The position numbers and the translations under genes are program-made. This document shows positions 5,740-62,172 of a DNA stretch of 64,000 nt, piece after piece. Under the pieces are notes generated by a model. The model ran no database searches. It was given only the letters and a program-made list of their open reading frames with translations, and was not told the DNA's origin. Each line of letters starts with the position of its first letter. The first letter of the stretch is position 1. Origin of the DNA: an uncultured bacterium (GTDB lineage Bacteria; Patescibacteriota; Doudnabacteria; UBA920); assembly GCA_963749445.1 (NCBI GenBank), contig CAVVMJ010000010.1:181738-245737 (forward strand), written 5' to 3'.

Positions 5740-5872
5740 CTCCAACCACCTCCCCCGCCTGCGGCGGGTACTCCTCCTTAAAAAGGAGGAGAGCTCCGCG
5801 GTATTGCGGATAACTGCGGAGCTTCCCTCCTGCCAAGGAGGGATGTCCCGCAAAGCGGGACGGGGTGGTTGT
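5740..5872. repeat. R1 GC-rich modular hairpin repeat, A-spacer-B palindromic pair
   Basis: CTCCAACCACCTCCCCCGCCTGCGGCGGGTACTCCTCCTTAAAAAGGAGGAGAGCTCCGCGG ... GCGGAGCTTCCCTCCTGCCAAGGAGGGATGTCCCGCAAAGCGGGACGGGGTGGTTG; same modules as copies at 12315, 16248, 29219, 30712, 37884, 40021, 50671, 51806. Confidence 0.85.
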
Positions 5873-5886
5873 TAAATGTTAAATGT

Positions 5887-7902: not shown

Positions 7903-7972
7903 AAGCTTTTAGCGATTAGCGATTAGCCAGCAAAACTGTATGGCTAAATGCTACTTGCTAAACGCTAAATGC
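7903..7972. repeat. H1 spacer hairpin between rplD and rplC
   Basis: GCTTTTAGCGATTAGCGATTAGCCAGCAAAACTGTATGGCTAAATGCTACTTGCTAAACGCTAAATGC. Confidence 0.8.
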
Positions 7973-7976
7973 TTGC

Positions 7977-8642
7977 TTACTTCTTCTTTTTCTCTTCCTT
8001 AACTTCCGTAATCTTAACAAGCGGTTTTACTACGCCCGTGGAAATAATCCTGACAAGTCCGTTGCGATACCCAGGCACCGCGCCCTTGACTGAAATCAGA
8101 TTTTTTTTGGCGTCAACTTCCACCACTTGTAAATTCTTAACAGTCACTTGTTGTACGCCCATATGTCCGGCCATCCTTAAACCTTTGCGGGTGTGCTGGG
8201 GAAAGCGCTGGCCAATGGAACCCACGCTGCGCGGTTTGTTATGGCCGTGGGTCATGGGAAAACCTTTAAAGCCGTGGCGTTTCATGGCTCCGGCAAAACC
8301 GCGGCCCTTGCCCACGCCAATGGCGTTAACCAGTTCGCCGGCCTGAAAACCGCTGACGTCAATCTTTTGGCCGCGCTGATAAGGCTTGGTGTCGCTGACC
8401 TTAAATTCTGATAAAACGGCAAAAGCACCCAAATCCTTCAAATGTCCCGCAATGGATTTTGATGCTTTTCTCTTTTTACCAATTCCGACTTGCACCGCGC
8501 TGTACTTATCTCTTCCTTCCACGGATTTAATCTGAGTAACTATCATCGGGTCTGCCTGGATTACGGTCACCGGCAAAACCGCCCCGCTCTGGGGATCAAA
8601 ATACTGCGTCATATTCAGTTTTCGTCCGATGAGGAAATTCAT
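7977..8642 (-). CDS. rplC: 50S ribosomal protein L3
   Basis: 221 aa; GRKLNMTQYFDPQSGAVLPVTVIQ and FKGFPMTHGHNKPRSVGSIG match L3. Confidence 0.9.
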   Translation of the reverse strand: MNFLIGRKLNMTQYFDPQSGAVLPVTVIQADPMIVTQIKSVEGRDKYSAVQVGIGKKRKASKSIAGHLKDLGAFAVLSEFKVSDTKPYQRGQKIDVSGFQAGELVNAIGVGKGRGFAGAMKRHGFKGFPMTHGHNKPRSVGSIGQRFPQHTRKGLRMAGHMGVQQVTVKNLQVVEVDAKKNLISVKGAVPGYRNGLVRIISTGVVKPLVKITEVKEEKKKK

Positions 8643-9483: not shown

Positions 9484-9615
9484 ACAAACAGCACCATTTC
9501 TTAAACTCACGGCCGTGAGTTTAAGAAACCTGCGATCAAATGGAATGATGGCAAAATCCGCCAGGCTCATATCTCCCATATACTGGAGCATAAAAAATAC
9601 TAACTCTCTCGAACT

Positions 9616-9672
9616 GGATCCCGGATATTTTTTGCGGCTTATGATGTTCATCAGCGCAAAAAATCCGGGATG
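9616..9672. repeat. R3 hairpin repeat (GGATCCCGGATATTTTTTGCGGC...GCGCAAAAAATCCGGGATG)
   Basis: one of four copies (also 13307..13372, 58813..58870, 62041..62172); causes the spurious look-alike ORFs 9481..9720 and 58670..58903. Confidence 0.8.
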
Positions 9673-9823
9673 GACACATGTGTAGTTAGCCCGATTTTCT
9701 GGGCTGCCCAAATATCTCACAGCCGATAAATCGGCTAACTACGGGCTTAAATAGCCAAAAGGACTACCCTTTCAAGGATAGTCCTTTGTCTGTGTTAATC
9801 CGTTATCAATCCGTGTTTATCTT

Positions 9824-11367: not shown

Positions 11368-12303
11368 CTATAAGGCCCTTTCCAAAGTTAAGTTACAATG
11401 CTGGCTGACCCAAGACTGGTCAAATTCATCCAATTCCCGCCTCTGTCCGTTGAGAATGTAATACTGGCGGCTTTGGGGAGTGCCGGTTAGGGGAGGCATA
11501 TCGTTTTCTATCCACTGCTCGGGACAGACCTGGAGCTTGCCGGTTGCGGAAGGCGGGGAAGATGGCGCGGGAGCGGGAGCGGAAGTATATGAAAAGCCGT
11601 TCCTCAAAACATCAAGCTTATTCCACACATCGGCATGGTCAAATTCCGCCCTTGGTGGAGAAAAATTCCCCGCGTTGGCCCAGCGGGCGGTTTCGTCAAT
11701 TTCGTAACAAATTGTCCCGTAAAAAGCGCGGTTAAAATGGGTTTCGCTAAAATTGCCGGCTCCGGCGTCCGTGGCTACGGCCGTAATAAACACCACGCCA
11801 TTGCCCAAGGCAGCGCCTTTAACCTGGCCGCCGTTTAACTCCTGCGCGGTAAAGCTGCCGCAATCGCCAATGTTGGTTTTATCTTTTAAAACAGACACGG
11901 CAACGCCCGCTGACTCCAAATTCGTGTTTTGGTACGGCTGGCCGTTTAACACAAAACACACATCCGGCATTTCGCCGTACGGCACGCAGGCGGAAAAATT
12001 CACTCCCTTGGTATTATTCGCTTTAACTTTTGCCCCGGTAAAAAGATTAAAATAACTTAAATACAAAATCTTAAAATGTTCCGCGGCGTTATTGTAAACA
12101 TTCAAGGTCAGCGGCGGCGGCGGAACGGTTGTTTTTTGGGGAGTTGATGTTGCCGCTACCGGCGTAGACGTTGCCGGCTGGTTTTGGGCCGGTTGAATTG
12201 ATATATTTTGGCTCGCAGCCGGTACTGTCAAAACCGGCTGCGGCTTTTTAGAACAGGCGGCGGCCAAAAGTAAGATTGATGCGATGATAAAAATTTTCTT
12301 CAT
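11368..12303 (-). CDS. lipoprotein of unknown function (paralogous signal peptide to 4840..5730)
   Basis: Start at MKKIFIIASILLLAAACSKK; Thr/Pro-rich linker; R1 half-repeat immediately upstream of start codon. Confidence 0.55.
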   Translation of the reverse strand: MKKIFIIASILLLAAACSKKPQPVLTVPAASQNISIQPAQNQPATSTPVAATSTPQKTTVPPPPLTLNVYNNAAEHFKILYLSYFNLFTGAKVKANNTKGVNFSACVPYGEMPDVCFVLNGQPYQNTNLESAGVAVSVLKDKTNIGDCGSFTAQELNGGQVKGAALGNGVVFITAVATDAGAGNFSETHFNRAFYGTICYEIDETARWANAGNFSPPRAEFDHADVWNKLDVLRNGFSYTSAPAPAPSSPPSATGKLQVCPEQWIENDMPPLTGTPQSRQYYILNGQRRELDEFDQSWVSQHCNLTLERAL

Positions 12304-12314
12304 ATGGATTATGC

Positions 12315-12374
12315 GCGGAGCATCCTCCCCTGCCAAGGGGAGGTGTCCCGCGAAGCGGGACGGAGGGGTTGGAG
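12315..12374. repeat. R1 terminal inverted repeat (B orientation) abutting stop codon of DUF559 gene
   Basis: GCGGAGCATCCTCCCCTGCCAAGGGGAGGTGTCCCGCGAAGCGGGACGGAGGGGTTGGAG ends at 12374; gene stop begins at 12375. Confidence 0.85.
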
Positions 12375-12725
12375 TCAACCAAGATTTTTCTTAATCTCCT
12401 GTAACACTCCTTCTAAATTTTTTATGACATCCTTATTTTCAAATCTTATAACTTTTATATTCAGCCTTTGTAAATATTCGGTTCTATTTTCATCTTTGGC
12501 GTAACCTTGTTCGGAATCATGAGGACTGCCGTCAAGTTCAACGGCAAGCTTCTTATCGGCGCAATAAAAATCTACAATATACCTGCCAATACCGTGTTGC
12601 CGGCGAAATTTATGGCCCAATTGCTTATTTTTTAAATGATTCCAGAGCCTGGCTTCGGCTGGCGTTAAATGCTTTCTTAAGTCTTTTCTGTAATTTTTCA
12701 GACCGATGATGTTGTTTAACCTCAT
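12375..12725 (-). CDS. DUF559 domain protein (Vsr-like / PD-(D/E)xK endonuclease fold)
   Basis: 116 aa; LTPAEARLWNHLKNKQLGHKFRRQHGIGRYIVDFYC...ELDGSPHD motif set; about 65% identical to 29279..29635; framed exactly by R1 inverted repeats. Confidence 0.7.
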   Translation of the reverse strand: MRLNNIIGLKNYRKDLRKHLTPAEARLWNHLKNKQLGHKFRRQHGIGRYIVDFYCADKKLAVELDGSPHDSEQGYAKDENRTEYLQRLNIKVIRFENKDVIKNLEGVLQEIKKNLG

Positions 12726-12789
12726 ACTCCAACCCCCCTCCCGCCGCTTTGCGGCAGACTCCCCCTTAACAGGGGGAGATGCTCCGCGG
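12726..12789. repeat. R1 terminal inverted repeat (A orientation) abutting start codon of DUF559 gene
   Basis: CTCCAACCCCCCTCCCGCCGCTTTGCGGCAGACTCCCCCTTAACAGGGGGAGATGCTCCGCGG begins one base after the ATG (12725); its GGAG sits in Shine-Dalgarno position. Confidence 0.85.
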
Positions 12790-13229: not shown

Positions 13230-13306
13230 CCCAGCCGAGCATCATCGCAACACATGGGCGAGAGCCGGGATCCAGTTACCGGCTCAAATACTGTATACCG
13301 ATTCTG

Positions 13307-13372
13307 GGCCCCGGATATTTTTTGCGGCCTGCGATAACCATCAGCGCAAAAAATTCCGGGGTGGAAACTATT
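13307..13372. repeat. R3 hairpin repeat copy
   Basis: GGGCCCCGGATATTTTTTGCGGCCTGCGATAACCATCAGCGCAAAAAATTCCGGGGTGG. Confidence 0.75.
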
Positions 13373-14007: not shown

Positions 14008-16131
14008 TCACATACCTTTTCTAACATTAATCCCCTGCCGGCTTTCAATAATCTTTTCCGCCACGTTCCTTGGCACTTCGGCGTAATGGTCAAATTCCAT
14101 TGTATAGCTGGCCTGGCCCTGCGTCATTGAACGGAGCGATGTGGCATAGCCGAACATTTCGCTGAGCGGCACCATCGCGTCAATAACTTTGAGGTGTAAT
14201 TTATCCGTCATCTCATTAATCTGCGCGCGCTTACTGTTCAAATCTCCGATGACATCGCCCATATTGGTTTCCGGCGTGGTCACTTCCACTTTCATAATCG
14301 GCTCCAAAATAACCGGATCGGCTTTTTTTACGGCATCCTGCAAACCCTTGGAAGCGGCAATTTTAAACGCCATTTCACTGGAGTCTACTTCGTGGTACGA
14401 ACCGTCAAACGCCGCGGCGCGGAAATCCACCAACGGATAGCCGGCAATTACGCCGTTGGCCGCCGACTCCTGAATGCCTTTGTCTATCGGCTTAATGTAT
14501 TCGCGCGGAATCACGCCGCCGACAATCTCGTCCACAAACTCGTAACCCTTGCCGCGCTCCAGCGGCTCCACGCGCAAATAGACGTGGCCGTATTGGCCGC
14601 GGCCTCCGGTCTGGCGGATGTATTTACTCTCGGCCTCGGCGATTTTTTTGATGGTTTCCTTGTACGCGACTTCCGGCTTGCCCACGTTGGCTTCCACTTT
14701 GAACTCGCGTTTCATTCTGTCCACAATGATTTCAAGATGTAACTCACCCATCCCGCCGATAATCGTCTGCTGGGTCTCTTCATTCGTGGATAATTTAAAA
14801 GTCGGGTCTTCCTCGGCCAATTTACCCAATGCGATGCCCATTTTTTCCTGGTCAGCCTTGGTCTTAGGCTCAATGGACATATGAATCACCGGCTCGGCAA
14901 ACTTGATGCGTTCCAGCTGGATGGGCTTATCCACGTCGCACAAAGTATCACCGGTAAAGGTTTCTTTTGGCCCGACAAGGGCGCAAATGTCGCCGGCAAA
15001 AACTTCCTTGACTTCTTCGCGGTCATCGGCCTTCATTCTTACAATGCGTCCCACGCGCTCTTTGTTTTCGGTTCTTGCGTTAAGCACATACGAGCCGGCT
15101 TCCAGAAACCCTGAGTACACGCGGAAAAAACACAAGCGCCCGACAAACGGGTCAGTGGCAATTTTAAAAGCCAAAGCCGCAAACGGCTCGCTGTCCAAAG
15201 GCTTTCGTTCTATGTCCGCGCCGGTCTTCAAGTCGTGCCCTTTGACCGGGCCGCGGTCCGTCGGGGAAGGTAAAAAATTGGTCACCGCGTCCAAAATCGT
15301 TTGCACAATAATTCCCCTGCCGTCGCCGCCCAAAACCGGAAAAAACTTACCGCTCTGCACGCTCTTTCTTATGGCCGTCAAAAATTCCCGCTCCGTCAGT
15401 TCGGCTCCGGTCAAATATTTTTCCATTATAACGTCGTCGCTTTCCACGACTTTCTCCAAAAGTTTGTGGCGCCACTCTTTGCATTTTTCCAGCATATCGG
15501 CCGGCACTTCGCCCACGGTAAACTCCTTGTCCGTGTAATCTTTGTAGGTGTAGGCCTTCATGTTTATCAAATCCACCACGCCGCAAATATCTTTTTCAAA
15601 ACCGATCGGCAATTGGATGGGCAGGGCGTCGGGCGACAATCTTTTGTGGATGGAGGTCAAAGATTTATAAAAGTCGCCGCCGGTTTGGTTGATTTTGTTG
15701 ATAAAGCACATCCGCGGCACGTGGTATTTGTCCGCCTGGCGCCAGACTGTTTCGGATTGCGGCTCCACGCCCATCTTCCCGTCAAACACGACAACTGCTC
15801 CATCAAGCACTCTTAAAGACCGCTCCACTTCCACGGTAAAATCCACGTGGCCCGGGGTATCAATAATATTGATCTTGTGTTTGACATCGCCCGCGAGCTT
15901 GACGAATTTCGGCGCCCAATAGCAAGTTACCGCGGCCGCGGTAATGGTAATGCCGCGCTCGCGCTCCTGCTCCATCCAGTCAGTCACGGTTTCGCCTTCG
16001 TGCACCGTGCCGATTTTATGGATCATTCCGGTATTATACAAAACGCCTTCGGTCACGGTCGTCTTGCCGGCGTCTATGTGCGCGATAATGCCGATGTTTC
16101 TTGTAAGTTCTATTGGATATTCACGAGCCAT
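14008..16131 (-). CDS. fusA: elongation factor G
   Basis: 707 aa; [21 protein letters not shown]-equivalent and all five EF-G domains present. Confidence 0.95.
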
Positions 16132-16247
16132 AAAAAATTAGTTTTTAGATATTAGTTGTTAGGTTTTAGGTTTTAGGTTTTACATTGTGCAGCGGAAAAG
16201 TATATACTTCGGTATATACAAAATTTTCAAAGTTCTTTTGCAAATCC

Positions 16248-16393
16248 GCGGAGCTTCCCCTCCTTCCCTCCTTGCTGAGGAGGGGTGGATCGCGTTAGCG
16301 AGACGGGGTGGTATTTATCCGCAAAGACTCCAACCACCTCCCCCCTCGACTTCGCTCGGGGTACTCCTCCTTAAAAAGGAGGAGAGGCTCCGC
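16248..16393. repeat. R1 repeat, B-spacer-A pair (gene-less derivative of the DUF559 element)
   Basis: GCGGAGCTTCCCCTCC...GGAGGGGTGGATCGCG...GACGGGGTGGTATTTATCCGCAAAGACTCCAACCACCTCCCCCC...TACTCCTCCTTAAAAAGGAGGAGAGGCTCCGC; between fusA and rpsG. Confidence 0.85.
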
Positions 16394-16438
16394 AGTTGTC
16401 CGTCTCAGTCCGTTCCCAGTCCGTAACAGTCCGCGTAC

Positions 16439-17053
16439 CTATCTCCGCCCAAACCTCGCAAAATGCGCAAACGCCTTATTGGCCTCTGCCATCCTGTGCA
16501 CGTCTTCTCTCTTCTTTATGGCTGCACCGGTGCGGTTGTAGGCGTCCATAATTTCTCCGGCCAATTTTTCCTTCATGGGCGCGCCTTTTTTGGCCCTGGC
16601 CGCGGCCAACAGCCAGCGGATGCCGAGCGTGGTCTTGCGCGGCTCCTGAACTTCCATCGGCACCTGATAGTTAGCCCCGCCGATTCTGCGGGATTTTAAC
16701 TCCATCATCGGGGCGACGTTTTTTAACGCGATATCAAATACCGCTCGGCCGTCCAACTTTTGCGGTGCCGCTGATTTTTGCGGAACTGCAGTATTCCCCT
16801 CCTTTTTAAGGAGGGGCGTCTGCGCAGCAGACGGGGTGGTTGGAGATTTGACTGAAACAGCAACCGGAGCCGCCACGGGCATCGCGGCCATTTTTTTCTC
16901 CACAATCTCCAAAGCGTCGTAAAAAATCCTGCGCGCCACGTTTTTCTTGCCGCGCTGCATCAAATAATTTATAAATTTGGCATACTTGACCGAGCCGAAT
17001 TTCGGGTCCGGCAAAGGCACGTGTTTGTCGTAGCTCCTTGATTTTCTGGGCAT
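16439..17053 (-). CDS. rpsG: 30S ribosomal protein S7 with about 46 aa in-frame insertion partly encoded by an R1 half-repeat
   Basis: 204 aa versus about 156 typical; N-terminal (PRKSRSYDKHVPLPDPKFGS) and C-terminal (KKREDVHRMAEANKAFAHF) S7 blocks flank AMPVAAPVAVSVKSPTTPSAAQTPLLKKEGNTAVPQKSAAPQKLDG. Confidence 0.9.
   Translation of the reverse strand: MPRKSRSYDKHVPLPDPKFGSVKYAKFINYLMQRGKKNVARRIFYDALEIVEKKMAAMPVAAPVAVSVKSPTTPSAAQTPLLKKEGNTAVPQKSAAPQKLDGRAVFDIALKNVAPMMELKSRRIGGANYQVPMEVQEPRKTTLGIRWLLAAARAKKGAPMKEKLAGEIMDAYNRTGAAIKKREDVHRMAEANKAFAHFARFGRR
16801..16864. repeat. R1 half-repeat (B) inside rpsG coding sequence, in frame
   Basis: GGAACTGCAGTATTCCCCTCCTTTTTAAGGAGGGGCGTCTGCGCAGCAGACGGGGTGGTTGGAG. 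Confidence 0.85.
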
Positions 17054-17055
17054 GG

Positions 17056-17130
17056 TTTTAGCTTTTAGCGATTAGCTTTTAGCGATTAGCCAGCCATGTC
17101 TGGCTAAATGCTAACTGCTAAATGCTAACT
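17056..17130. repeat. H1 spacer hairpin (TTAGCG/GCTAAA tandem-repeat arms)
   Basis: TTTTAGCTTTTAGCGATTAGCTTTTAGCGATTAGCCAGCCATGTCTGGCTAAATGCTAACTGCTAAATGCTAA; copies also at 57..130, 1587..1670, 7903..7972, 17553..17632. Confidence 0.8.
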
Positions 17131-17136
17131 TCTTGT

Positions 17137-17550
17137 TTACTTCTTCTTGGCTCCATACTTAGACCGAGAGCGTTTCCGACCGTCAACGCCTAATGTGTCC
17201 AATTTCCCTCTGATGATATGATAGCGCACGCCGGGCAAATCTTTTACCCTGCCGCCGCGGATCATCACCACACTGTGTTCCTGTAAGTTGTGGCCGATGC
17301 CCGGAATATAGGCAATCACTTCCATGCCGTTGGTGAGTTTGACTTTGGCGACTTTGCGCAAAGCCGAGTTCGGCTTTTTGGGCGTGGTGGTATAAACCTT
17401 AAGGCACACGCCACGCATAAACGGCGCGCCTTTGGCAATCCACAAGGTGCGGTTTTTGATTAAGTTGACGCGGCGCAACAAAGCCGGAGCCTTGCTTTTG
17501 GCCTGTAAACTGTGCCTGCCGTGCCTGACTAACTGGTTGATTGTGGGCAT
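17137..17550 (-). CDS. rpsL: 30S ribosomal protein S12
   Basis: 137 aa; [12 protein letters not shown]...[14 protein letters not shown]...[11 protein letters not shown] canonical S12. Confidence 0.9.
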
Positions 17551-17552
17551 TT

Positions 17553-17632
17553 CGTTAGCTTTTAGCGTTTAGCGATTAGCGATTAGCCAGCCATGTTTGG
17601 CTAAAAGCTAACTGCTAAATGCTAAATGCTTT
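17553..17632. repeat. H1 spacer hairpin upstream of rpsL
   Basis: TTCGTTAGCTTTTAGCGTTTAGCGATTAGCGATTAGCCAGCCATGTTTGGCTAAAAGCTAACTGCTAAATGCTAAATGC. Confidence 0.8.
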
Positions 17633-18353: not shown

Positions 18354-18737
18354 TCATCTCTGGCACCCCTCAATATTCTTATCCACGTCGTTATTCCAAA
18401 ACTGTAAAACTTTATACCCCTGTTCTTTGGCATAATCCCGTTTGGTCAAATCATAGTCAGAAACCTTTTGCTCGCTATGCTGTCCTCCGTCAAGTTCAAT
18501 CAGTAACATTTTTTCACGGCAGCTGAAATCAAAAATATATGAACCAACCTGCACCTGACGCTTAAATTTTAAATGATAAAACCGCCCGGCGCGCAGGCGG
18601 CTCCATAGCTTGGTTTCCCAAGGTGTTTGGTTTTTGCGGAGATTTTTTGAGTTTGTTAAAAAAGGTTCAGGGATTATGCGATTTTCCATATATTCTGCAA
18701 CCTCTCTGTCTAAAATTTTGGCCGATGATGAACCCAA
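18354..18737 (-). CDS. DUF559 domain protein (third, more divergent copy)
   Basis: 127 aa; HLKFKRQVQVGSYIFDFSC...ELDGGQH pattern parallels the other two; flanked only by R1 fragments (18751..18782 and 18252..18300). Confidence 0.65.
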   Translation of the reverse strand: MGSSSAKILDREVAEYMENRIIPEPFLTNSKNLRKNQTPWETKLWSRLRAGRFYHLKFKRQVQVGSYIFDFSCREKMLLIELDGGQHSEQKVSDYDLTKRDYAKEQGYKVLQFWNNDVDKNIEGCQR

Positions 18738-18822
18738 ACAAAATTTTAGACATCTCTCCTCAAAAGGAGAGAAGCTCCGCGGAAAACCCTTTCGTCATCC
18801 CAATCGGCGACCAATCACTGAT

Positions 18823-23256: not shown

Positions 23257-25065
23257 TTAATGGCCGAAAAATCCTCTGGCTAAACTGTCCGGCAATAAAC
23301 AAAGGCTGATGTTTTTATCTTTGCAAAACTTTTTAATTTCAGGGTCGCGCACACTGCCGCTTGTGGCTATTATAGCACAAATCCCGGCTTTTGCCAAAAC
23401 TTCCACCCCGTCCACGAACGGGAAAAAACTGTCGCTGTAGGCCACCGCGCCTTTGGTTTGATGTCCCGCGTCCAGGGCCCGTTTGATGGCCAACTGGCAG
23501 CAGCCGACTCTGTCCTGCTGCCCCACACCGTTGCCGATTAACATCCCGTCTTTGACCAAAGTGACAGTGTTGCTGTTGCTGGTGGAACCGATTGCCCAGG
23601 CCAAAAGCATATCGGATTTTTGCTGATCGGATAATTTGCCGATAAACTCCGGCCGAGGGTTCCCCTCGGTTTCCGAACGGCTCCGGTCCGAGGGGAACCC
23701 TCGGGTCAAATCCAAAACAAAATCATAATTCGGCTGGGCCAAAAACCCGCCGCGCACATAACGGAACCGACGATGGCTATCCGGCGAGTTTTTTGACAGA
23801 TTCCCCAGCGCGGGGTTTACCAAAAACCGGCACTTGTCGCCTTTGCGTTTTAACATTCTGACCGCTCCTTCGGTAAAGGATGGAGCAATAATCCCATCAA
23901 GCAACCTCCGCGGCTTGCCCGCCGAAGCTTCAGCGAAGGTGGGAGCTTTCCCCTCCTTTTCAAGGAGGGGTCCGGCCGAAGGCCGGGGGGTGGTTGGAGC
24001 CATCCGATGTGTAAGCAATATTTCCGCCAATTTTTCGTCAACCAAAAAATTTACCATCACCAGCCCGCCAAAAATCGCGCGCAAATCCCCTTCCAGCATT
24101 TTTTGGATGGCCGATGACGGCGTATCGGAAACCGCCGCACCGCACGGGTTGCCGTGCTTTACCCCCAAAGCTATATTCATTATTCCCTTCCCCCTCTGGG
24201 GGAAGGTGGCCGTGAGGCGGCCGGATGAGGGTTTTATTACGGATTGCAACAAAGTGGGATTGCAGTCAAACCCTGCCGCAATGTGCGTTATGGTCTGCAG
24301 CAATCTGTCCACGTCCGCCCAGTTGTTGTAACTTACCGGCATGCCGGCCAATAATCGGAATTTCGATAGCGATAATTCATCACTATCTGAAATCGCATAC
24401 AATCCCGCCGGCGTCTGGCATGCATTCTCGCCATATTTACAAATTGCGGCGCGGTGACCAACCATTCCTTCGTATTCGCCCGCTCCGTGATAGCGCGCGG
24501 ACGACAAACAGTACTCCGCCACAATAAATTCCGCTTTAGCTGCAAGCTGGTCCAAAAATTTTTCTTTATCAGGCTTGCCGTTTTTTAACCAGCTGATGAC
24601 TGCCACCCTGTCGTCCGGATCACAAACGACGATTCTTCTTCCCTTGGCCGCGCTCCGGAGCATTGTCGGCCCGCCAATGTCAGTCTTTTCGATAACAGCT
24701 TCCCTGGCCTTTGCCGATCCGACTTCCGATTTTCCGATTTTTCCGATTTCTTCCGACAACGGATACAAATCCACGCACACCAAATCTATCCACGGGATTT
24801 TTAATCGATTTAATTCCTGCCGATCTTCATCGGTATCCCGCGCCAAAAGCCCGGCGTGGACTTCGCGCGACAACGTGACTACGCGATGACCCAAAATCGC
24901 CTTACCGCCGGCCAAAGAAGCCACATCAGTCACTTTAATTCCTGCGTCTGACAAAGCTTTGGCTGTCCCTCCGCTCGCCAAAATTTTAAATCCCAAATCC
25001 GCCAACTCTTTGGCAAATTCCACAATCCCGTCTTTATTATAAACCGAAATCAGTGCGGTTTTCAT
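23257..25065 (-). CDS. purH: bifunctional AICAR transformylase / IMP cyclohydrolase, with several in-frame repeat-encoded insertions
   Basis: 602 aa; N-terminal MGS-like domain (MKTALISVYNKDGIVEFAKELADLGFKILASGGTAKAL) and AICARFT domain; about 80 aa longer than typical because of insertions at 23653..23706, 23941..24000, 24170..24235, 24711..24760. Confidence 0.9.
   Translation of the reverse strand: MKTALISVYNKDGIVEFAKELADLGFKILASGGTAKALSDAGIKVTDVASLAGGKAILGHRVVTLSREVHAGLLARDTDEDRQELNRLKIPWIDLVCVDLYPLSEEIGKIGKSEVGSAKAREAVIEKTDIGGPTMLRSAAKGRRIVVCDPDDRVAVISWLKNGKPDKEKFLDQLAAKAEFIVAEYCLSSARYHGAGEYEGMVGHRAAICKYGENACQTPAGLYAISDSDELSLSKFRLLAGMPVSYNNWADVDRLLQTITHIAAGFDCNPTLLQSVIKPSSGRLTATFPQRGKGIMNIALGVKHGNPCGAAVSDTPSSAIQKMLEGDLRAIFGGLVMVNFLVDEKLAEILLTHRMAPTTPRPSAGPLLEKEGKAPTFAEASAGKPRRLLDGIIAPSFTEGAVRMLKRKGDKCRFLVNPALGNLSKNSPDSHRRFRYVRGGFLAQPNYDFVLDLTRGFPSDRSRSETEGNPRPEFIGKLSDQQKSDMLLAWAIGSTSNSNTVTLVKDGMLIGNGVGQQDRVGCCQLAIKRALDAGHQTKGAVAYSDSFFPFVDGVEVLAKAGICAIIATSGSVRDPEIKKFCKDKNISLCLLPDSLARGFFGH
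23941..24000. repeat. R1 half-repeat (B) in frame inside purH
   Basis: GGGAGCTTTCCCCTCCTTTTCAAGGAGGGGTCCGGCCGAAGGCCGGGGGGTGGTTGGAG encodes APTTPRPSAGPLLEKEGKAP. Confidence 0.8.
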
Positions 25066-28521: not shown

Positions 28522-29218
28522 CGATTGCCCTCCTTGGCAACTGGATCCCTCTTCTGCATCAGCAAAAGAGGATACTACACCGCACAACGACGGCCTTAGA
28601 ATTGGACGGGTCAGGGCTTATCCCAATCTTTCCCATGCTCTCAACCGTACTTGGTCGTGAACTGAATCGGGACATGCCCTAATCAGACATTACATCCACG
28701 ATCGTTCCGCAATTGAGCACATTTGCCAACTTGGTAAGTCGGCGGGAAAAACTGAGCACCCCTTTTCTCGGAGAATGAGGTATTATTGCATCCGAGCCTT
28801 TGACCCGTAATCTTTTGAGCATTGCTGCTCAGAAAATTTTATCCAATTCTTTTAGATAAAAATTCCTAAGCACCATCCTCTGCCCAACAAAATACCTAGC
28901 CTTCTCGTTTTGGCTAGGTTGGTGTTTGTTCTAAATTCCGTTTAACTTTTTCCCCTTCAAACCCCACCTAGCCCGTCCCAAACATAGCCCTTAACAAAAA
29001 GGACCGGGCGGACGACAATGGTGGTGGAAAGGTTTTTATACATTCTTGTACTGGTTAACTGATACAAGTATACAACAAACTGGCAAATTGTCAATATATT
29101 TATAAATTTGGCTTAAATAAAAGACTAATTTTATATGATGGCGTAATACTTAATGAAAATTTATTGGTTATCCCCAATCACGAACAATATATTCGGCTAT
29201 CCTGTTATTCGGTTATAC

Positions 29219-29278
29219 GCGGAGCTTCCCCTCCTGCCAAGGAGGGGTGTCGCGCGAAGCGTGACGGGGTGGTTGGAG
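29219..29278. repeat. R1 terminal inverted repeat (B) abutting stop of DUF559 gene
   Basis: GCGGAGCTTCCCCTCCTGCCAAGGAGGGGTGTCGCGCGAAGCGTGACGGGGTGGTTGGAG. Confidence 0.85.
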
Positions 29279-29635
29279 TTATTGCAAATGTTTCCCGATT
29301 TCAGCCAACACCCCTTCTAAATTTTTAATTACATCGCCGTTTTGAAAACGGATAACCTTTATGCCTTTGCTCTCCAAATATCTTGCGCGTTCCTGGTCTT
29401 TTGTGTAGCCCTGTTCCGTATCGTGAGGCGAACCATCAAGTTCTATGGCTAATTGCCTGCTTGGGCAATAAAAGTCCAGGATATAATAACCAATGCCGTG
29501 CTGCCGCCTGAATTTTACTCCCAATTGGTTATTCTTGAGATGCACCCAAAGTCTGGCTTCTGCCGGGGTTAAATGCTTGCGTAGTTCTTTCCGGTTATTT
29601 TTTGAGCCTATTAGATTATTCAACCTATCAGTCAT
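29279..29635 (-). CDS. DUF559 domain protein (Vsr-like endonuclease fold), second intact copy
   Basis: 118 aa; LTPAEARLWVHLKNNQLGVKFRRQHGIGYYILDFYC...ELDGSPHD; framed exactly by R1 inverted repeats as at 12375..12725. Confidence 0.7.
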   Translation of the reverse strand: MTDRLNNLIGSKNNRKELRKHLTPAEARLWVHLKNNQLGVKFRRQHGIGYYILDFYCPSRQLAIELDGSPHDTEQGYTKDQERARYLESKGIKVIRFQNGDVIKNLEGVLAEIGKHLQ

Positions 29636-29698
29636 GCTCCAACCCCCTCCCCCGCCTTCGGCGGGTACTCCCCCTTGACAGGGGGAGAGGCTCCGCGG
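29636..29698. repeat. R1 terminal inverted repeat (A) abutting start of DUF559 gene
   Basis: GCTCCAACCCCCTCCCCCGCCTTCGGCGGGTACTCCCCCTTGACAGGGGGAGAGGCTCCGCGG. Confidence 0.85.
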
Positions 29699-36532: not shown

Positions 36533-39500
36533 TTAAACCACAAAATTTATTAAGCGGTCAGGCACAAAAATCACCCGCCTGATATTTTGGGTTCCGACGA
36601 TTGCCACAGCCTGCTGTTTAACTTGATTCTCATCGCTTCCCGGCGACACCGTAATGCGGCCTTTGACTTTGCCGTTGACCTGCACCACGATTTCAATTGT
36701 GGCGTCAACGATTTTTGCCGGGTCAAACGCCGGCCAGCTTTCCAGCTGGAGCGATTTTTTGCCTCCGATGATTGAATTTAGTTCTTCTGCCAGATGCGGC
36801 GCGAACGGATGTAACAATTTTAGAAAAATTTTAAAATCTTCCTTCGAAATATTTTGGCCAAAAGCTTGAATATTTTTTAAATTTAAATATTTTTCAAACT
36901 TTGGATCTTTTGATTTAATCATTTCTTCTCGGGTAATATAAATTTCGTTCATAAACACCATAAGACCGGATACGCAGGTGTTAAATCGAAAATTTTCTAT
37001 ATCCTCTTCGACTTTTTTTATAGTTTTATTCAAAGCTTTCTCAACTTGTCCGTCAGTAAAATTCATTACATCGTTATCTTCCATCGCCTTTAGACTTAAA
37101 CCGACCTGATATACCTTATCCAAAAATCTTTTGACCCCGACTACGCTTTTGTCGTTCCAGGCGATGGTGTCCTCGTGCGGACCCAAAAACAACTCAAACA
37201 TGCGCAACGTGTCCGCGCCGTGCGAGGCTACAATATCCTGCGGATTGACCACGTTGCCGCGGCTTTTGGACATTTTTTCGCCGTCCGCAGCCAAAATTAT
37301 GCCGTGAGGCACGCGTTTAACATACGGCTCCCTTGATGTAACCAATCCTTGATCAAACAAAAATAAATTCCAAAACCGGCTGTAAAGCAAATGCAAAGTC
37401 GTGTGCTCCATGCCGCCAAAATAAACGTCCACCGGCGTCCAGTATTTTTGTTTGCTGATGGACGCGAATTCTTTTTTGTCTTTTGGATCGATATACCTTA
37501 ACCAATACCAACTGCTACCTGCCCATTGCGGCATAGTGTTGGTTTCTCTTTTTGCCGGCGATTTGCAATTCGGACATTTTACATTAACCCAGTTTGATAT
37601 TGCGGCCAATGGCGATTCTCCTGTTCCTGTCGGCTGGTAATTTTTGACCGGCGGGAGTTTTACCGGCAAATCCTTTTCGGCTACCTCCACAATACCGCAT
37701 TTTGGGCAATGAATAATCGGAATCGGCTCGCCCCAGTAGCGCTGGCGGGAAAATACCCAATCACGGAGTTTATACTGGACAGTCGCTCTGCCGAATTTTG
37801 CTGCCATTTTGGGAATTGCATCTTCTGACTTCATTCCGGTAAATTCACCGGAATTAATCAAAGCACCATAATCCGCAACGGCTCCGACCACCTCCCCGCC
37901 TGACGGCGGTACTCCCCCTTGAAAAGGAGGAGAGCTCCGCGTGACATCCGAGAATAACTGCAGAGCTTCCCCTCGCTTCTTTAAGGAGGGGTGGACGCGA
38001 AGCGAACGGGGTGGTTGGAGACACAACTTGCTTAATTGGTAAACCGTATTTCTTCGCAAACTCAAAATCCCGCTCATCATGCGCCGGCACGGCCATAATC
38101 GCGCCGGTGCCATAACCCCAAAGCACGTAATCCGCCGCCCAAATCGGGATTTCTTCTTTTGTTGCAGGATTAATCGCCTTAATACCTTTTAACTCCACTC
38201 CGGTTTTTTCCTTACCTTCTGATGAACGATCCATTTCCGATTTTTTCTTTGCCTTTTCTACATATTCCTCAACTTCTTTGTAATTTGATCCGCCTTGGCG
38301 GATGAAATTTTCTGTCAACGGATGTTCCGGTGCCACCACCATATATGTCGCGCCGAAGATAGTGTCCGGCCGCGTGGTAAAAACTTTGATTAACGGCAAG
38401 ACGGCGGCCAAAACTTCCGGTTCTTGCTCGGCGCGAAAATGAACCAGTTGCCCTGCTTTTCTAGTGATAGGCGCGTTCAAAACTTCCGACAGTTGGGCAG
38501 CTTGATCGTCGGAAATTGCATCGTCGTTGGGATCATGTAAAATTGTAATTGAACCGGCTTTATTTTTAATCGCCGAAAAATCAAAACTCCATTTAAAATT
38601 TTTTTGAAAAGGCCTGGGTGGTCTTTAAAATTTGGGCTGACAAAACCGCCGACCAATACCAGTCCAGCGATTTTTGCCTGTAATTTTTCCAGAACTTTCA
38701 TCGCCACCACCGTTCCCAAACTATGGCCGACTAAAATTGTATTTTCGCCAAAACGGCAATTTTTCAAAACAAAATTAACCTGCGCTTCTTCACTGGGATT
38801 AGTCGGATTCGGCAAGGCCGGTATATCCACTTTCATACCTTTAAATTCCAATTGGCTTTTTAGCCAAGGATAGAATCTGGTTTCCGGCGTTTCATTCCAA
38901 CCGTGCAAAATTACGTAATTATGTTTTGCGTTTAGGGTAAAATTAATTTCCGCGCCCACAGACTTGCCAATCCAGTTTTCCTGTTGGAGCTTAACCGCTT
39001 CCGGCCACTCGGGCAGATGTTTTAATCCTTCCAAAAGTTTTTCCGCATACGCAGTAATTCTTAAATACCACTGGCGCAATTCTTTTTTTTCAACGACTGT
39101 GCCGCAGCGCTCGCATTTGCCGTCTATGACTTCTTCGTTAGCCAAACCGGTTTTGTCTTTCGGACACCAATTAATCAAACCTGTTGCCTCGTAGGCCAAT
39201 CCTTTTTTAAAGAATTGCAAAAACAGCCATTGTGTCCATTTATAATAATTCGGGTCTGTGGTATTTATTTCCCGCGACCAATCAAAACTTAAACCCCACG
39301 ACTGCATTTGTTTTTTGGCATTTTTGATATTTTTCGCCGTGGTTACCGCGGGCTGGACGCCTTTTTTATGGCATAATTTTCCGCCGGCAAACCAAACGCG
39401 TCCCAGCCGATGGGAAACATAACCTCATAGCCCCGCATACGATGATAACGAGCATAAACATCCGCGGCCACGTACGGCCGCAAATGCCCCATATGCAAAC

Positions 39501-39691: not shown

Positions 39692-40666
39692 TCAGATGTT
39701 AAATAGTTTTTTTGCATTTTTGGTCGTCGATTCCGTAACTTCTTTAATTGACAAACCTTTTATCTCCGCAACCTTATCGGCCACAAACCTTACATAGCTC
39801 GGCTCGTTTCTTTTGCCTCGATGAGGCGCCGGCGATAAATACGGGCAATCGGTTTCCAGTAAAATTTTATCAAGCGGCGCGAGTTTTACCAACTTTTCCA
39901 TATTGCCGGTTTTGTCAAATGTGATTATTCCGTTAAAGCTGACATACGCGCCGCGGTCGAGGAATTTTTGGAGATATTCTGGACTTCCCGTGTAACTGTG
40001 CACCTCAAACCTCAAACCGGCTCCAACCCCCTCCCCGCCCTTCGGGCGGTACTCCCCCTTGTCAGGGGGAGAGGCTCCGCCTATATCCTCGGTCAACTGC
40101 GGAACTTCCCCTCCTGCCAAGGAGGGGTGTCCCGCGGAGCGGGACGGGGTGGTTGGAGTTTTTTCCTCATCAAGTATCTCCAGTAAATCATCATAAAGCG
40201 ACTCATCACCTTTTGCCGGGCGACTGTGGACTACTAAAACTTTATTTAATTCTTTTGCTAATTTCACTTGCTCCCGAAATGCAGCTTTTTGTTTATCTTT
40301 GACTTGCTGATGGTCGCCATCCGCAGGAAACCGATAATAATCCAGCCCGCACTCCCCTATCCCGACAACTTTCGGGTTTGTCGCTATACTTTGGTATAGC
40401 GCTTCGTCAAAATGCTCTTCGCGGGTAAGAAAATGCGTTTCTTCTTCATCAACGTATTGGGAATGGGTATGCTCGGGATGCAAACCGACAACCGCGTAAA
40501 TCCCCTCTTTAAATTGATTAGCCAATTCCACGGCCTCTCGTGACGTGTCTATTTGCGACCCGACGTTTATGACCCAAGTATCATTATCAAGCGCCCGCTG
40601 CAAAGCTTCTTTGGCATCGCCCTTAAACGCGCGAAAATTCACGTGAGCGTGGGTGTCAATCAACAT
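39692..40666 (-). CDS. tatD: TatD family hydrolase with about 50 aa in-frame insertion encoded by an R1 pair
   Basis: MLIDTHAHVNF, GIGECGLDYYR, VVHSR, ETDCPYL motifs; 324 aa versus about 260 typical. Confidence 0.85.
   Translation of the reverse strand: MLIDTHAHVNFRAFKGDAKEALQRALDNDTWVINVGSQIDTSREAVELANQFKEGIYAVVGLHPEHTHSQYVDEEETHFLTREEHFDEALYQSIATNPKVVGIGECGLDYYRFPADGDHQQVKDKQKAAFREQVKLAKELNKVLVVHSRPAKGDESLYDDLLEILDEEKTPTTPSRSAGHPSLAGGEVPQLTEDIGGASPPDKGEYRPKGGEGVGAGLRFEVHSYTGSPEYLQKFLDRGAYVSFNGIITFDKTGNMEKLVKLAPLDKILLETDCPYLSPAPHRGKRNEPSYVRFVADKVAEIKGLSIKEVTESTTKNAKKLFNI
40021..40158. repeat. R1 repeat A-spacer-B pair, in frame inside tatD
   Basis: CTCCAACCCCCTCCCCGCCCTTCGGGCGGTACTCCCCCTTGTCAGGGGGAGAGGCTCCGC ctatatcctcggtcaactgc GGAACTTCCCCTCCTGCCAAGGAGGGGTGTCCCGCGGAGCGGGACGGGGTGGTTGGAG; encodes KTPTTPSRSAGHPSLAGGEVPQLTEDIGGASPPDKGEYRPKGGEGVGAG. 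Confidence 0.9.
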
Positions 40667-50401: not shown

Positions 50402-51793
50402 TTAATAATGCTCTTTATAATATTTTAGCATATCTTCAAAATAATCGTAAGTGATGGCGGTGCGGATTTTTTTCATTAGGTTTAGATAAAAACGCAGGTT
50501 GTGCATTGTGGCCAGGCGGGTGCCGAGCTGTTCACCGGTGGCAAATAAATGCCGCAGATAAGATTTGGTGTGGTTTAAACACAAGTAGCAATCGCAAGTG
50601 TTGTCTATGGGGGTAAAATCTTCTTTGTATTTTTCCAGGCGGATGTCGATGGTTTGGTAGCCTTCTACAACTCCAACCCCCTCCCCCCGCTTCGCGGGAT
50701 ACTCCCCCTTGTCACCCCTCGACTCCGCTCGGGGTGACCCTGAGCGGTAGCCGAATGAGTCAGGGGGAGAGGCTCCGCGTTTGTTCGAGGATATACGCGG
50801 AGCTTCCCCTCCGAGCTTGGGAGGGGTGGCCGCGCCAGCGGCCTGTTCGACTTCGCTCAAGGCCGCCCTGAGCCCAGCCGAATGGGCGGACGGGGTGGTT
50901 GGAGTCGGAATATTTTTTGCCGCGATATAAAGCCTTCCATGCCTCGCCTCCCTTGTCGGAATAACGCAATCAAAAGTATCGCAGCCGCGCGCCGTACCCT
51001 GGACAATATCGTAAGGCGTGCCTACGCCCAAAAGATGTTTGGGTTTTTGTTCCGGCAAATGCGCTATTGACCACTCCACGGCTTTCATCATTTCTTCAAA
51101 CGGCTCGTCAACCGTGGCTACGCCGCCGATGGCAAATCCTTCAAAACCAAAATTCGCCATCGCTTGGGCGGAAATTTTACGCAAGTCCTCAAAATTCGAA
51201 CCCTGAACTATACCCCAAAGTTTTTGTCCGGAGTTGATGGGGTCGCCGTGCTTCATAATATTTAAATGTTCGCGGATGGCGCGCTCGGCCCAGCGGTTGG
51301 TCAGCTCCGTGGAGATTTTACTTTTTTCATACTCAAACGGCACGCCGGAAAAATCATCCAAAATTAAAGCGATGTCGCTGCCCAGGTTGGCCTGGATTTG
51401 AATGGATTTTTCCGGCGATAAAATTTCCTGTTTGCCGTCCAAATCAAAATTAAACAGCACCCCGGCTTCCATTACCTTTTTAAATTTTGCCAGTGATTGC
51501 ACCTGAAATCCCCCGCTGTCAGTAAATATCGGCCCTTTCCAGTTCATAAATTGGTGCAAGCCGCCGGCTTTATAAATCAGTGCGTCGCCCGGACGTTGCC
51601 ACAAGTGGTAAGTATTAGCGAGTATCATTTCCGCGCCCCAAAATTTTAACTCCTCGCTCGTAACCGACTTAACCGTCCCCCTCGTCCCAATAGGCAAAAA
51701 CGCCGGCGTATGCACATCCCCGTGCGCGGTATGTATTATGCCGTTTCTTGCGGCTGATGAGGAATCTTTTTTTTGGATGTCGAAATAAGGCAT
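50402..51793 (-). CDS. tgt: queuine tRNA-ribosyltransferase with 78 aa in-frame insertion encoded by an extended R1 element
   Basis: 463 aa versus about 375 typical; FLPIGTRGTVK, DSGGFQ, DCVIPTR, CDCYLC zinc site all present; insertion NIPTPTTPSAHSAGLRAALSEVEQAAGAATPPKLGGEAPRISSNKRGASPPDSFGYRSGSPRAESRGDKGEYPAKRGEGVGVVEG. Confidence 0.9.
   Translation of the reverse strand: MPYFDIQKKDSSSAARNGIIHTAHGDVHTPAFLPIGTRGTVKSVTSEELKFWGAEMILANTYHLWQRPGDALIYKAGGLHQFMNWKGPIFTDSGGFQVQSLAKFKKVMEAGVLFNFDLDGKQEILSPEKSIQIQANLGSDIALILDDFSGVPFEYEKSKISTELTNRWAERAIREHLNIMKHGDPINSGQKLWGIVQGSNFEDLRKISAQAMANFGFEGFAIGGVATVDEPFEEMMKAVEWSIAHLPEQKPKHLLGVGTPYDIVQGTARGCDTFDCVIPTREARHGRLYIAAKNIPTPTTPSAHSAGLRAALSEVEQAAGAATPPKLGGEAPRISSNKRGASPPDSFGYRSGSPRAESRGDKGEYPAKRGEGVGVVEGYQTIDIRLEKYKEDFTPIDNTCDCYLCLNHTKSYLRHLFATGEQLGTRLATMHNLRFYLNLMKKIRTAITYDYFEDMLKYYKEHY
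50671..50904. repeat. R1 repeat, extended A-X-B form, in frame inside tgt
   Basis: CTCCAACCCCCTCCCCCCGCTTCGCGGGATACTCCCCCTTGTCACCCCTCGACTCCGCTCGGGGTGACCCTGAGCGG...GAGGCTCCGCG...GCGGAGCTTCCCCTCCGAGCTTGGGAGGGGTGGCCGCGCCAGCGGCC...GGACGGGGTGGTTGGAG. Confidence 0.9.
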
Positions 51794-58749: not shown

Positions 58750-58812
58750 TGTCCATCCCGGCCGAGCCCAAGCATACAGGGCGAGAGACGGGACCCGAAA
58801 AAAAGCTTATAC

Positions 58813-58870
58813 CTGGATCCCGGATATTTTTACGGCTGATAATATTCAGGAACGTAAAAATTCCGGGATG
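58813..58870. repeat. R3 hairpin repeat copy downstream of recombinase gene
   Basis: GGATCCCGGATATTTTTACGGCTGATAATATTCAGGAACGTAAAAATTCCGGGATG. Confidence 0.75.
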
Positions 58871-58994
58871 ACAACTGAATATACGTCTGTATAAAACTAC
58901 CACTTTAAAAGCCCGTCTGGTTTTCCAAACGGGCTTTTAAGTTTGTTGACTCTTACTCATCTGTTTCTTATTACTGATTAATTATTGCCGATTA

Positions 58995-61992: not shown

Positions 61993-62040
61993 AGTCGTAT
62001 TTTAAATGATAAATATTTGATTTTAATATAGATGCCATCC

Positions 62041-62172
62041 CGGAATTTTTCAAGCTTGAGGATGTTTTCAGTCTTGAAAAATATCCGGGATCCAGATTTT
62101 TGCTTCTACTGGATCCCGGATATTTTTTACGGCTGCTGATATCCCAACGCGTAAAAAATTCCGGGATGACAA
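62041..62172. repeat. R3 hairpin repeat, tandem pair
   Basis: CCGGAATTTTTCAAGCTTGAGGATGTTTTCAGTCTTGAAAAATATCCGGGATCCAGATTTTTGC...GGATCCCGGATATTTTTTACGGCTGCTGATATCCCAACGCGTAAAAAATTCCGGGATG. Confidence 0.75.

Follow-up and report, generated by a model that had tools for sequence, protein, structure and literature searches.

The stretch of DNA analysed here, referred to as the window, comprises 64,000 nucleotides of contig CAVVMJ010000010.1 (assembly GCA_963749445.1) from an uncultured bacterium of the Patescibacteriota (Doudnabacteria; UBA920). It contains rpsG, the gene for ribosomal protein uS7 (S7), and inside the reading frame of rpsG lies one half-unit of a short palindromic repeat family, here called R1. 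The genes rpsL (S12, 17137-17550), rpsG and fusA (EF-G, 14008-16131) follow each other in str-operon order, all on the same strand, and the same order was found at the related loci L082-L088. The features of rpsG are as follows.

16439-17053, minus strand: rpsG, ribosomal protein uS7, 204 amino acids, intact frame (list of open reading frames (ORFs), Pfam PF00177, PDB chains, Foldseek).
16745-16891, minus strand: S7 loop insertion (amino acids 55-103) between helix 2 and helix 3, low-complexity and predicted disordered (two-block PDB alignment, AlphaFold, relatives).
16780-16845, minus strand: complete alpha-type R1 half-unit, in coding sense CTCCAACCACCCC, hairpin 2, hairpin 1, AATACTGCAGTTCCGC (nhmmer, alignment to 15 further units, fold).
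16796-16816: hairpin 1, CCCCTCC/TTTTTAA/GGAGGGG, a perfect 7-bp stem translated as PLLKKEG (pattern search, fold, related contig L081).
16817-16833: hairpin 2, CGTCTGC/GCA/GCAGACG, a perfect 7-bp stem; the hypervariable, structure-preserving part of the unit (fold).
16768-16779, minus strand: CCGCTGATTTTT, resembling the central spacer of a full R1 element (inverted-repeat pair I7).

The product of rpsG was confirmed as an S7 of 204 amino acids, in agreement with the original prediction. It matched the Pfam family Ribosomal_S7 (PF00177) with an E-value of 4e-52 and 176 bits (cut-off 24) over positions 5-148 of the 148-position profile. S7 chains of the PDB matched the product in two colinear blocks, with a best E-value of 2e-48. 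Residues 13-55 and 104-198 corresponded to residues 12-54 and 60-154 of the T. thermophilus chain (10px_1g), and residues 2-54 and 105-199 to residues 2-53 and 61-155 of the E. coli chain (11bq_G). Between the two blocks, about 48-50 residues are present where solved bacterial chains have 5-7, a net gain of about 43 amino acids. The predicted insertion of 46 amino acids was a fair approximation of this, and the peptide quoted for it is exactly residues 57-102. An AlphaFold model built with 28 relatives had helices at residues 22-31, 37-57, 102-113, 139-154 and 160-201, and the predicted site, the loop between helices 2 and 3, is the one bounded by the second and third of these. All of the top 50 Foldseek matches of the model were ribosomal S7 chains. 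The confidence score of the model (predicted local distance difference test) was below 50 at residues 64-96, and the beta-hairpin region was also of low confidence. According to the model, the insert is a disordered loop joining helices 2 and 3. Outside the insert, the conserved core is intact and has the characters of the S7 fold. The RGKK motif, presumably the RNA-binding Gly-Lys-Lys loop described in mutational work on E. coli S7, is invariant at positions 34-37, at the start of helix 2. The insert should be located at the far end of that helix, about 30 Å from the rRNA-binding face, and the loop is presumably exposed to solvent on the 30S head. From the translation, the tryptic peptides over the insert junctions are SPTTPSAAQTPLLK and EGNTAVPQK.

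An R1 half-unit is about 62-66 nucleotides long and is composed of CTCCAACCACCCC, a variable GC-rich hairpin 2, hairpin 1 with the sequence CCCCTCC-loop-GGAGGGG or a covarying version of it, and (A)AGCTCCGC; hairpin 1 is followed by GCTCCGC at the end of the half-unit. The copy in rpsG carries the terminal GGGGTGGTTGGAG at 16833-16845, and its two-hairpin fold has an energy of -26 kcal/mol. It encodes amino acids 70-91, SPTTPSAAQTPLLKKEGNTAVP, about 22 of the about 45 insert residues. The insertion had thus correctly been described as partly encoded by an R1 half-repeat, while the coordinates given for it, 16801-16864, were shifted relative to the unit. The rpsG segment matches R1 beyond chance, as judged by the 21-mer of hairpin 1, by sharing of a 16-mer and by a held-out profile. 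Allowing up to three mismatches, the 21-mer had seven matches, compared to none in 100 shuffles. A 16-mer of the rpsG half-unit is exactly common to four other R1 copies. An nhmmer profile made from 13 other half-units, with the rpsG copy held out, found the rpsG half-unit with an E-value of 5.2e-7 and 27 bits, at model positions 1-53 of 62. The frame through the half-unit is open and agrees across the whole unit with that of L081, a metagenomic contig described below. The adjoining CCGCTGATTTTT belongs to inverted-repeat pair I7 (16768-16814 against 5773-5819, 47 nucleotides, 70% complementary) and may, on weak evidence, be a remnant of the middle of an R1 element. The host codons for LDG (TTGGAC) resemble the R1 terminus GGTTGGAG and were considered as a degenerate second half, an idea that was rejected because LDGR is invariant in relatives free of the unit.

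The S7 loop is expanded in 120 of the 120 nearest relatives, which have S7 proteins of 171-229 amino acids and are Patescibacteria where named. These loops are rich in Ala, Pro, Lys and Ser, cannot be aligned, and are flanked by the conserved motifs ...FYDAL.IV.EK and K(L)DGR. S7 of normal length was found at the Paceibacteria-like loci L021, L024, L029, L067 and L078. The insertion had been predicted to be repeat-derived; an R1 half-unit is indeed part of it, but with an expanded loop in all 120 relatives it is not the product of one repeat event.

The closest S7 relative, with 82% identity, is encoded by the 918-nucleotide JGI contig L081, which has an R1 unit at the same place. Hairpin 1 of L081 is identical to that of the rpsG copy at 21 of 21 bases, and the R1 profile matched with an E-value of 2.4e-9. 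Alpha-type R1 units were also found in the S7 loops of L088 (E 4e-9) and L087 (E 2.1e-6), and the metagenome scan gave one more S7 with an R1 unit, L148. Alignment with related S7 had been proposed as a check of the original prediction; the loop that holds the units of L081, L087 and L088 is hypervariable among relatives. R1-bearing S7 contigs come from three other samples, JGI 3300037213, JGI 3300014839 and ENA ERZ1758400. A scan of genome contigs was dominated by the universally conserved motif MAEANKAF, and two close relatives were obtained from it.

At the protein level, the R1 signature in S7 is (S/A/T)PTTP followed by the hairpin-encoded PLLKKEG, PFLEKEG, PSLEKEG or PPLKGGE. It was observed in the S7 of the window (P0001) and in P0002, P0004, P0010, P0017, P0064 and P0067, in which R1 starts 15, 14, 12, 8, 7, 4 and 8 residues after helix 2, respectively. 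In some S7 copies hairpin 1 is read in another frame, because hairpin 2 is 24 or 26 nucleotides long. P0015 has no R1 unit, and its close relatives P0004 and P0010 have one. From these sequences, the pattern would fit several independent R1 insertions, or insertions and losses, into a permissive S7 loop.

Different palindrome-encoded peptides, VGEGLKP(S/F)PT, SPLPEGEG and SPARGEG, are present in other S7 loops. In the S7 of L084 (P0011, 10001-10651), the hairpin GTAGGGGAGGGTTTGAAACCCTTCCCTAC is located in the same loop and is translated as VGEGLKPFPT; related peptides with covarying stems were seen in P0003, P0007, P0008 and other relatives. BLAST of the S7 loop DNA of L084 against its own 13-kb flank gave no matching repeat.

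R1 is also present in other genes of the window, between genes and around small ORFs. The copies are listed below.

23925-23999, minus strand: R1 alpha half in frame in PurH (coding sequence 23257-25065), encoding APTTPRPSAGPLLEKEGKAP... (nhmmer E 6e-10, orthologues).
40021-40158, minus strand: full R1 (alpha and beta, 144 nucleotides with edges) in frame in TatD (coding sequence 39692-40666) (Pfam, translation, PDB gap).
50671-50904, minus strand: enlarged full R1 (about 237 nucleotides) in frame in tRNA-guanine transglycosylase (TGT; coding sequence 50402-51793) (PDB gap, L126).
37882-38020, minus strand: full R1 of 142 nucleotides in LeuRS, the reading frame being SPTTP at entry and ...GGEVVGA at exit, ORF broken.
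16244-16394: intergenic R1 doublet (alpha then beta) in the gap between rpsG and fusA (repeat families D1, D4, D10, D17; nhmmer).
12290-12788: inverted alpha and beta halves enclosing a DUF559 ORF of 116 amino acids (12375-12725, minus strand) (repeats D2, D1, D9; nhmmer).
29194-29697: the same arrangement with a DUF559 ORF of 118 amino acids (29279-29635, minus strand) (repeats, nhmmer).

The alpha half in PurH reads APTTPRPSAGPLLEKEG... and has no counterpart in four orthologues, in the DNA of which the empty site is seen. The TatD element reads TPTTPSRSAGHPSLAGGE...GGEGVGA. A protein search with the peptide that it encodes gave no candidate passing the word filter, an outcome that has no bearing on the distribution of R1. 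Pfam TatD spans residues 3-323 of that protein against a profile of 253 positions, and the PDB alignment has a gap at which query residues 163-222 correspond to chain residues 142-152. The corresponding gap for TGT is query 291-382 against chain 281-285, and an orthologous TGT insertion was found in metagenome contig L126. The PurH, TatD and TGT copies are intact and read as (S/A/T)PTTP..., while the LeuRS copy is only entered in that frame. The LeuRS ORF is broken because the R1 element is 142 nucleotides long. Several other insertions, short, lineage-specific and palindrome-like, are in frame elsewhere in the PurH genes of the window and L082-L086; one, RGFPSDRSRSETEGNPRPE, is common to the window and L084 only, and another, HPFASAKATADRSGG, was found in L086 only.

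LeuRS (36533-39307, minus strand) is spread over at least three ORFs, with frameshifts at an A7 run near 38590 and inside R1, and has an alpha/beta-hydrolase domain (Ser_hydrolase, PF06821) inserted ahead of the editing domain. The frameshifts are probably a homopolymer indel error of the assembly. A naturally split LeuRS was considered, and indel error was preferred since the second frameshift sits in the A7 run.

Occurrence outside the window was examined by an exact scan of JGI metagenomes with the motif CTCCAACCACCCC-N14-18-CCCCTCCTT. It returned 70 matches, distributed over 67 contigs; 19 of the matches fall within long ORFs and are read in the PTTP frame. The host protein was confirmed by Pfam for 10 of the 19: an ABC transporter, ArgRS, IleRS, RecG, peptidase M1, Dus, zinc ADH, DnaX, GatB and GrpE. 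Two of the three sense frames of the half-unit are open; the PTTP frame is used repeatedly and the Arg-rich LQPPR frame is not. The repeated use of the PTTP frame suggests that the peptide is visible to selection and is hence translated. R1 interrupts many essential genes in this genome and clade, S7 being one instance. The S7 insertion, originally considered unusual, is so only in comparison with other bacteria, because R1 is in frame in many essential genes of the clade.

The window contains at least 20 R1 half-units, and about 8 of about 22 are inside coding sequences. They fall into two subtypes, alpha and beta, and a full element consists of a beta half and an inverted alpha half. Full elements, for example 5740-5874 and 40021-40158, start with CTCCAACCACC and finish with GGTGGTTGGAG, which are terminal inverted repeats. 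All alpha-type halves are on the minus strand and all beta-type halves on the plus strand; the genes of the window are mostly on the minus strand as well. The intergenic doublet between rpsG and fusA was matched by nhmmer at 16328-16394 (E 2e-11) and 16313-16247 (E 1.5e-5). Despite differing stems, both hairpins form in 14 of 16 R1 units. MAFFT alignments of the units were structurally inconsistent because of differing loop lengths, and per-sequence folds and a stem-length statistic were used instead of a covariance model. Hairpin 2 was found as 54 distinct sequences across loci, of which 41% had a perfect stem of at least 6 bp, compared to 1.7% of shuffles. An Rfam scan of the window at gathering thresholds gave four tRNAs only; R1 is thus not a described RNA family, and no intron-like family was detected in the scan.

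The two units with enclosed DUF559 ORFs are about 490 nucleotides long and 75% identical over 150 nucleotides. Their R1 halves face inward, an arrangement opposite to that of the full elements, and the DUF559 ORFs are the only R1-enclosed ORFs in the window. A third DUF559 gene (18354-18737) has a weak R1 remnant beside it (region 18354-18781), so that all three DUF559 ORFs of the window adjoin R1. The DUF559 ORFs, which are PD-(D/E)xK nuclease-like, may, speculatively, form a mobile unit or be a partner of R1.

Two other repeat families were found in the window.

42-132, 1593-1688, 7904-7988, 17044-17134 and 17541-17631: copies of a second family (repeat scan).
9613-9676, 13303-13366, 58811-58874 and 62033-62171: copies of a third, palindromic family (repeat scan).

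The second family (D5, D7, D8, D13) consists of long AT-rich hairpins with runs of TTAGC/GCTAA-type pentamers around CCAGCC...GGCTGG, and its copies lie at gene boundaries, among them the positions directly before the start codons of rpsG and rpsL. The third family (D6, I1) has the form CCCGGATATTTTTTGCGG...CCGCAAAAAATCCGGG and includes one 63-nucleotide inverted pair 13 nucleotides apart.

The explanation that we favour, and regard as probable, is that R1 is a protein-coding mobile palindrome resembling the palindromic repeats of Rickettsia known as RPEs, and that one half-unit of it is tolerated in a permissive loop of S7. R1 is a short hairpin-forming interspersed repeat with dozens of copies in this genome and in relatives. 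Copies would land both between genes and in coding sequence, and would persist where the frame stays open and the site is a permissive surface loop. In rpsG, one alpha half-unit is located in the helix 2-helix 3 loop, which was already expanded, of low complexity and variable in the clade. The unit would be translated as a disordered passenger peptide rich in Pro, Thr, Ser, Ala and Lys, SPTTPSAAQTPLLKKEGNTAVP, with the S7 core left intact. R1 is presumably mobile, at present or in the past.

A number of observations weigh against this explanation. No transposase is present in the window, and mobility is deduced from the distribution of the copies only. No clear target-site duplication could be read from the filled and empty PurH sites, a comparison of one pair among strongly diverged orthologues. 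That the peptide of the unit is translated and harmless is likewise inferred. Apparent indel errors are present elsewhere on the contig, in LeuRS. BLAST of the S7 loops of L082, L085 and L086 against their 20-kb flanks gave no detectable repeat similarity, and the clade-wide expansion of the loop can therefore not be attributed to R1. The idea that the whole clade-wide loop is repeat debris was dropped after this and the corresponding result for L084. The expanded loop is older and wider than R1, which is nested inside it. The remaining points concern the conservation of the unit between the window and L081. Third-codon identity was 0.80 in the unit (0.90 without hairpin 2), compared to 0.64 in the S7 core and 0.37 in the remaining loop. 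In hairpin 2, five of six stem pairs differ (GTCTGC/GCAGAC against CCAGCC/GGCTGG), while length and perfect pairing are kept. Conservation of this kind points to gene conversion or a constraint at the nucleic-acid level and not to a purely neutral passenger. The hairpin 2 pattern would be explained by gene conversion among copies, by hairpin-templated repair or by selection on DNA or RNA structure, each on its own.

The loop could alternatively be a selected, lineage-specific expansion segment, for example a Lys-rich tether to rRNA, mRNA or a partner, for which R1 was recruited as raw material. All 120 relatives keep at least about 10 extra residues and the conserved exit motif KK/QK-LDGR, and the lack of the loop in L021, L024, L029, L067 and L078 indicates a stable trait of the clade. 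Ala/Lys-rich additions are furthermore known in ribosomal proteins of the Candidate Phyla Radiation (CPR), for example in uS19 (PMC9297842). However, the loop has no conserved sequence or length (a spread of about 60 residues) and is predicted to be disordered, some close relatives have the R1 piece and others do not, and the unit peptide also occurs in unrelated enzymes. We consider a selected expansion segment unlikely on this balance.

The hairpins could also act as nucleic acid, either as an element of the str operon for mRNA stability or ribosome pausing or as a recognition site for DUF559, with the peptide as a by-product. This would account for a third-codon identity in the unit above that of the S7 core, for a hairpin 2 that is swapped at five of six stem pairs and still paired, with structure kept over 54 stems, and for the position of three of three DUF559 ORFs of the window next to R1 halves. 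The same pattern would, however, be produced without any function by concerted evolution through gene conversion among dozens of copies, or by hairpin-templated repair. R1 has no match to an Rfam family, and its copies are found at arbitrary places in many genes. Of the two open frames one is used consistently, an argument that the peptide is of importance. A nucleic-acid role for the copy in S7 is accordingly given a low probability.

Assembly error had been named as the finding that would refute the original prediction. A multi-copy element such as R1 is a classic cause of mis-joins, and the contig has probable indel errors in the A7 run and the R1 element of LeuRS; an R1 copy could thus have ended up in rpsG through mis-assembly or a chimeric read. 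The rpsG frame is nevertheless intact across the insert, and a chimeric join would not be in frame with colinear S7 on both sides. Contigs of three other samples have the R1 unit in the same S7 loop, with orthologous units in the independent assemblies L081, L087 and L088, and P0004, P0010 and P0067 show the encoded motif. An artefact is very unlikely in view of these contigs. Ribosome bypassing is known from T4 gene 60 and the mitochondrial 'byp' elements, and removal of the unit from the mRNA or its skipping by the ribosome would make the frame-breaking 142-nucleotide copy harmless in the essential LeuRS gene; it is hardly credible here, as the copies in S7, PurH, TatD and TGT and the ten Pfam-checked metagenomic copies are all in frame, which would be needless if they were removed, the LeuRS break is more simply an indel with a second frameshift in an A7 run, and no intron-like family was detected.

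Beyond the tolerated passenger that we favour, a more far-reaching version can be put forward tentatively. R1 might be an undescribed palindrome family found throughout a clade of Patescibacteria and actively maintained, with stems replaced and pairing kept even between S7 orthologues, possibly mobilised or homogenised by DUF559 and repeatedly colonising the uS7 loop and essential genes. This is possible but doubtful; if true, R1 would contribute in a major way to the inflation of protein length and to the diversity of ribosome surfaces in genomes that are otherwise streamlined.

Patescibacteria are supposed to be extreme genome minimalists, and R1 in S7, aminoacyl-tRNA synthetases, DnaX, RecG, GatB and further core genes would be evidence that a streamlined genome can harbour selfish DNA within its genes. 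R1 would be a second independent system, beside Rickettsia, in which to study the accommodation of such inserts by proteins. In annotation and phylogenomics, R1 offers an explanation for marker proteins of these lineages that have unusual lengths or low-complexity stretches that cannot be aligned, and it flags a source of mis-assembly and frameshift calls. For the mechanism of the ribosome the finding means less, since the insert is most probably a disordered loop that the protein tolerates.

The loop of uS7 between helices 2 and 3 appears to be permissive, with independent expansions in at least two bacterial lineages. The uS7 of Coxiella burnetii (9T0Z chain G, also 9T61 and 9TZE), of 191 amino acids, aligns at chain residues 5-54 and 96-189 and thus has about 35 extra residues in the same loop. 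C. burnetii is a gammaproteobacterium and unrelated to the patescibacterial host of R1. Its 30S and 70S structures were described without comment on the uS7 insert (PMC13392368). A working Coxiella ribosome with about 35 extra residues implies that the site tolerates a large insertion.

Lineage-specific additions are also described for ribosomal proteins of the CPR (Tsurumaki et al. 2022, PMC9297842), and uS7 insertions for archaeal clades (bioRxiv 10.64898/2026.06.17.729505). These and the S7 insert are clade-restricted extra segments, some of them Ala/Lys-rich, and contain no known domain. The CPR and archaeal segments are treated as conserved clade markers, whereas the S7 segment described here is hypervariable and partly traced to a repeat family. 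The enlarged CPR ribosomal proteins named in the consulted part of PMC9297842 do not include uS7.

Among repeats, R1 shares hairpins, multiple copies, frequent inverted doublets and abundance between genes with REP/BIME/REPIN sequences and bacterial MITEs (Correia, ERIC, BOX). REPs lie almost entirely outside genes and are linked to RAYT transposases of the IS200/IS605 type; R1 halves instead flank DUF559 ORFs. With no RAYT found among the window ORFs examined and many copies intragenic, R1 does not belong with REP or REPIN. Like a MITE, R1 has terminal inverted repeats, and no transposase with the same ends was found in the window. Intragenic in-frame cases are known for ERIC and others (PMC10969869).

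R1 is closest in behaviour to the RPEs, palindromic repeats located in frame inside genes of Rickettsia (Ogata et al. 2000, 2002, as summarised in PMC10969869). RPEs are selfish or in any case self-propagating, and their intragenic copies survive where the frame is preserved and the loop is a tolerant one. Like RPEs, R1 is short, palindromic and interspersed, and its copies lie in intergenic DNA as well as in frame in many unrelated housekeeping genes. In either case the host protein gains a conserved peptide and is not destroyed, no transposase is encoded, and the bacterium is host-dependent and has a small genome. R1 has the RPE-like characters of a multi-copy consensus family, hairpin formation, in-frame stop-free copies in unrelated genes, and presence and absence among orthologues. 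Unlike RPEs, R1 is built of half-units of about 62 nucleotides that form two hairpins each, and a half-unit can occur as an insert on its own, as it does in S7 and PurH. The sequence of hairpin 2 is hypervariable while its pairing is kept, the hosts are Patescibacteria, and one ribosomal-protein loop appears to have been colonised repeatedly. By this analogy R1 would work like an RPE but is not called one, since the likeness is one of behaviour between unrelated taxa. No reports of protein-coding palindromic repeats in Patescibacteria or in uS7 were found in the literature searched. Protein-coding palindromes were already known from Rickettsia and intragenic MITEs from several bacteria; R1 stands out among them by an unusual modular half-unit and a variable hairpin of preserved structure.

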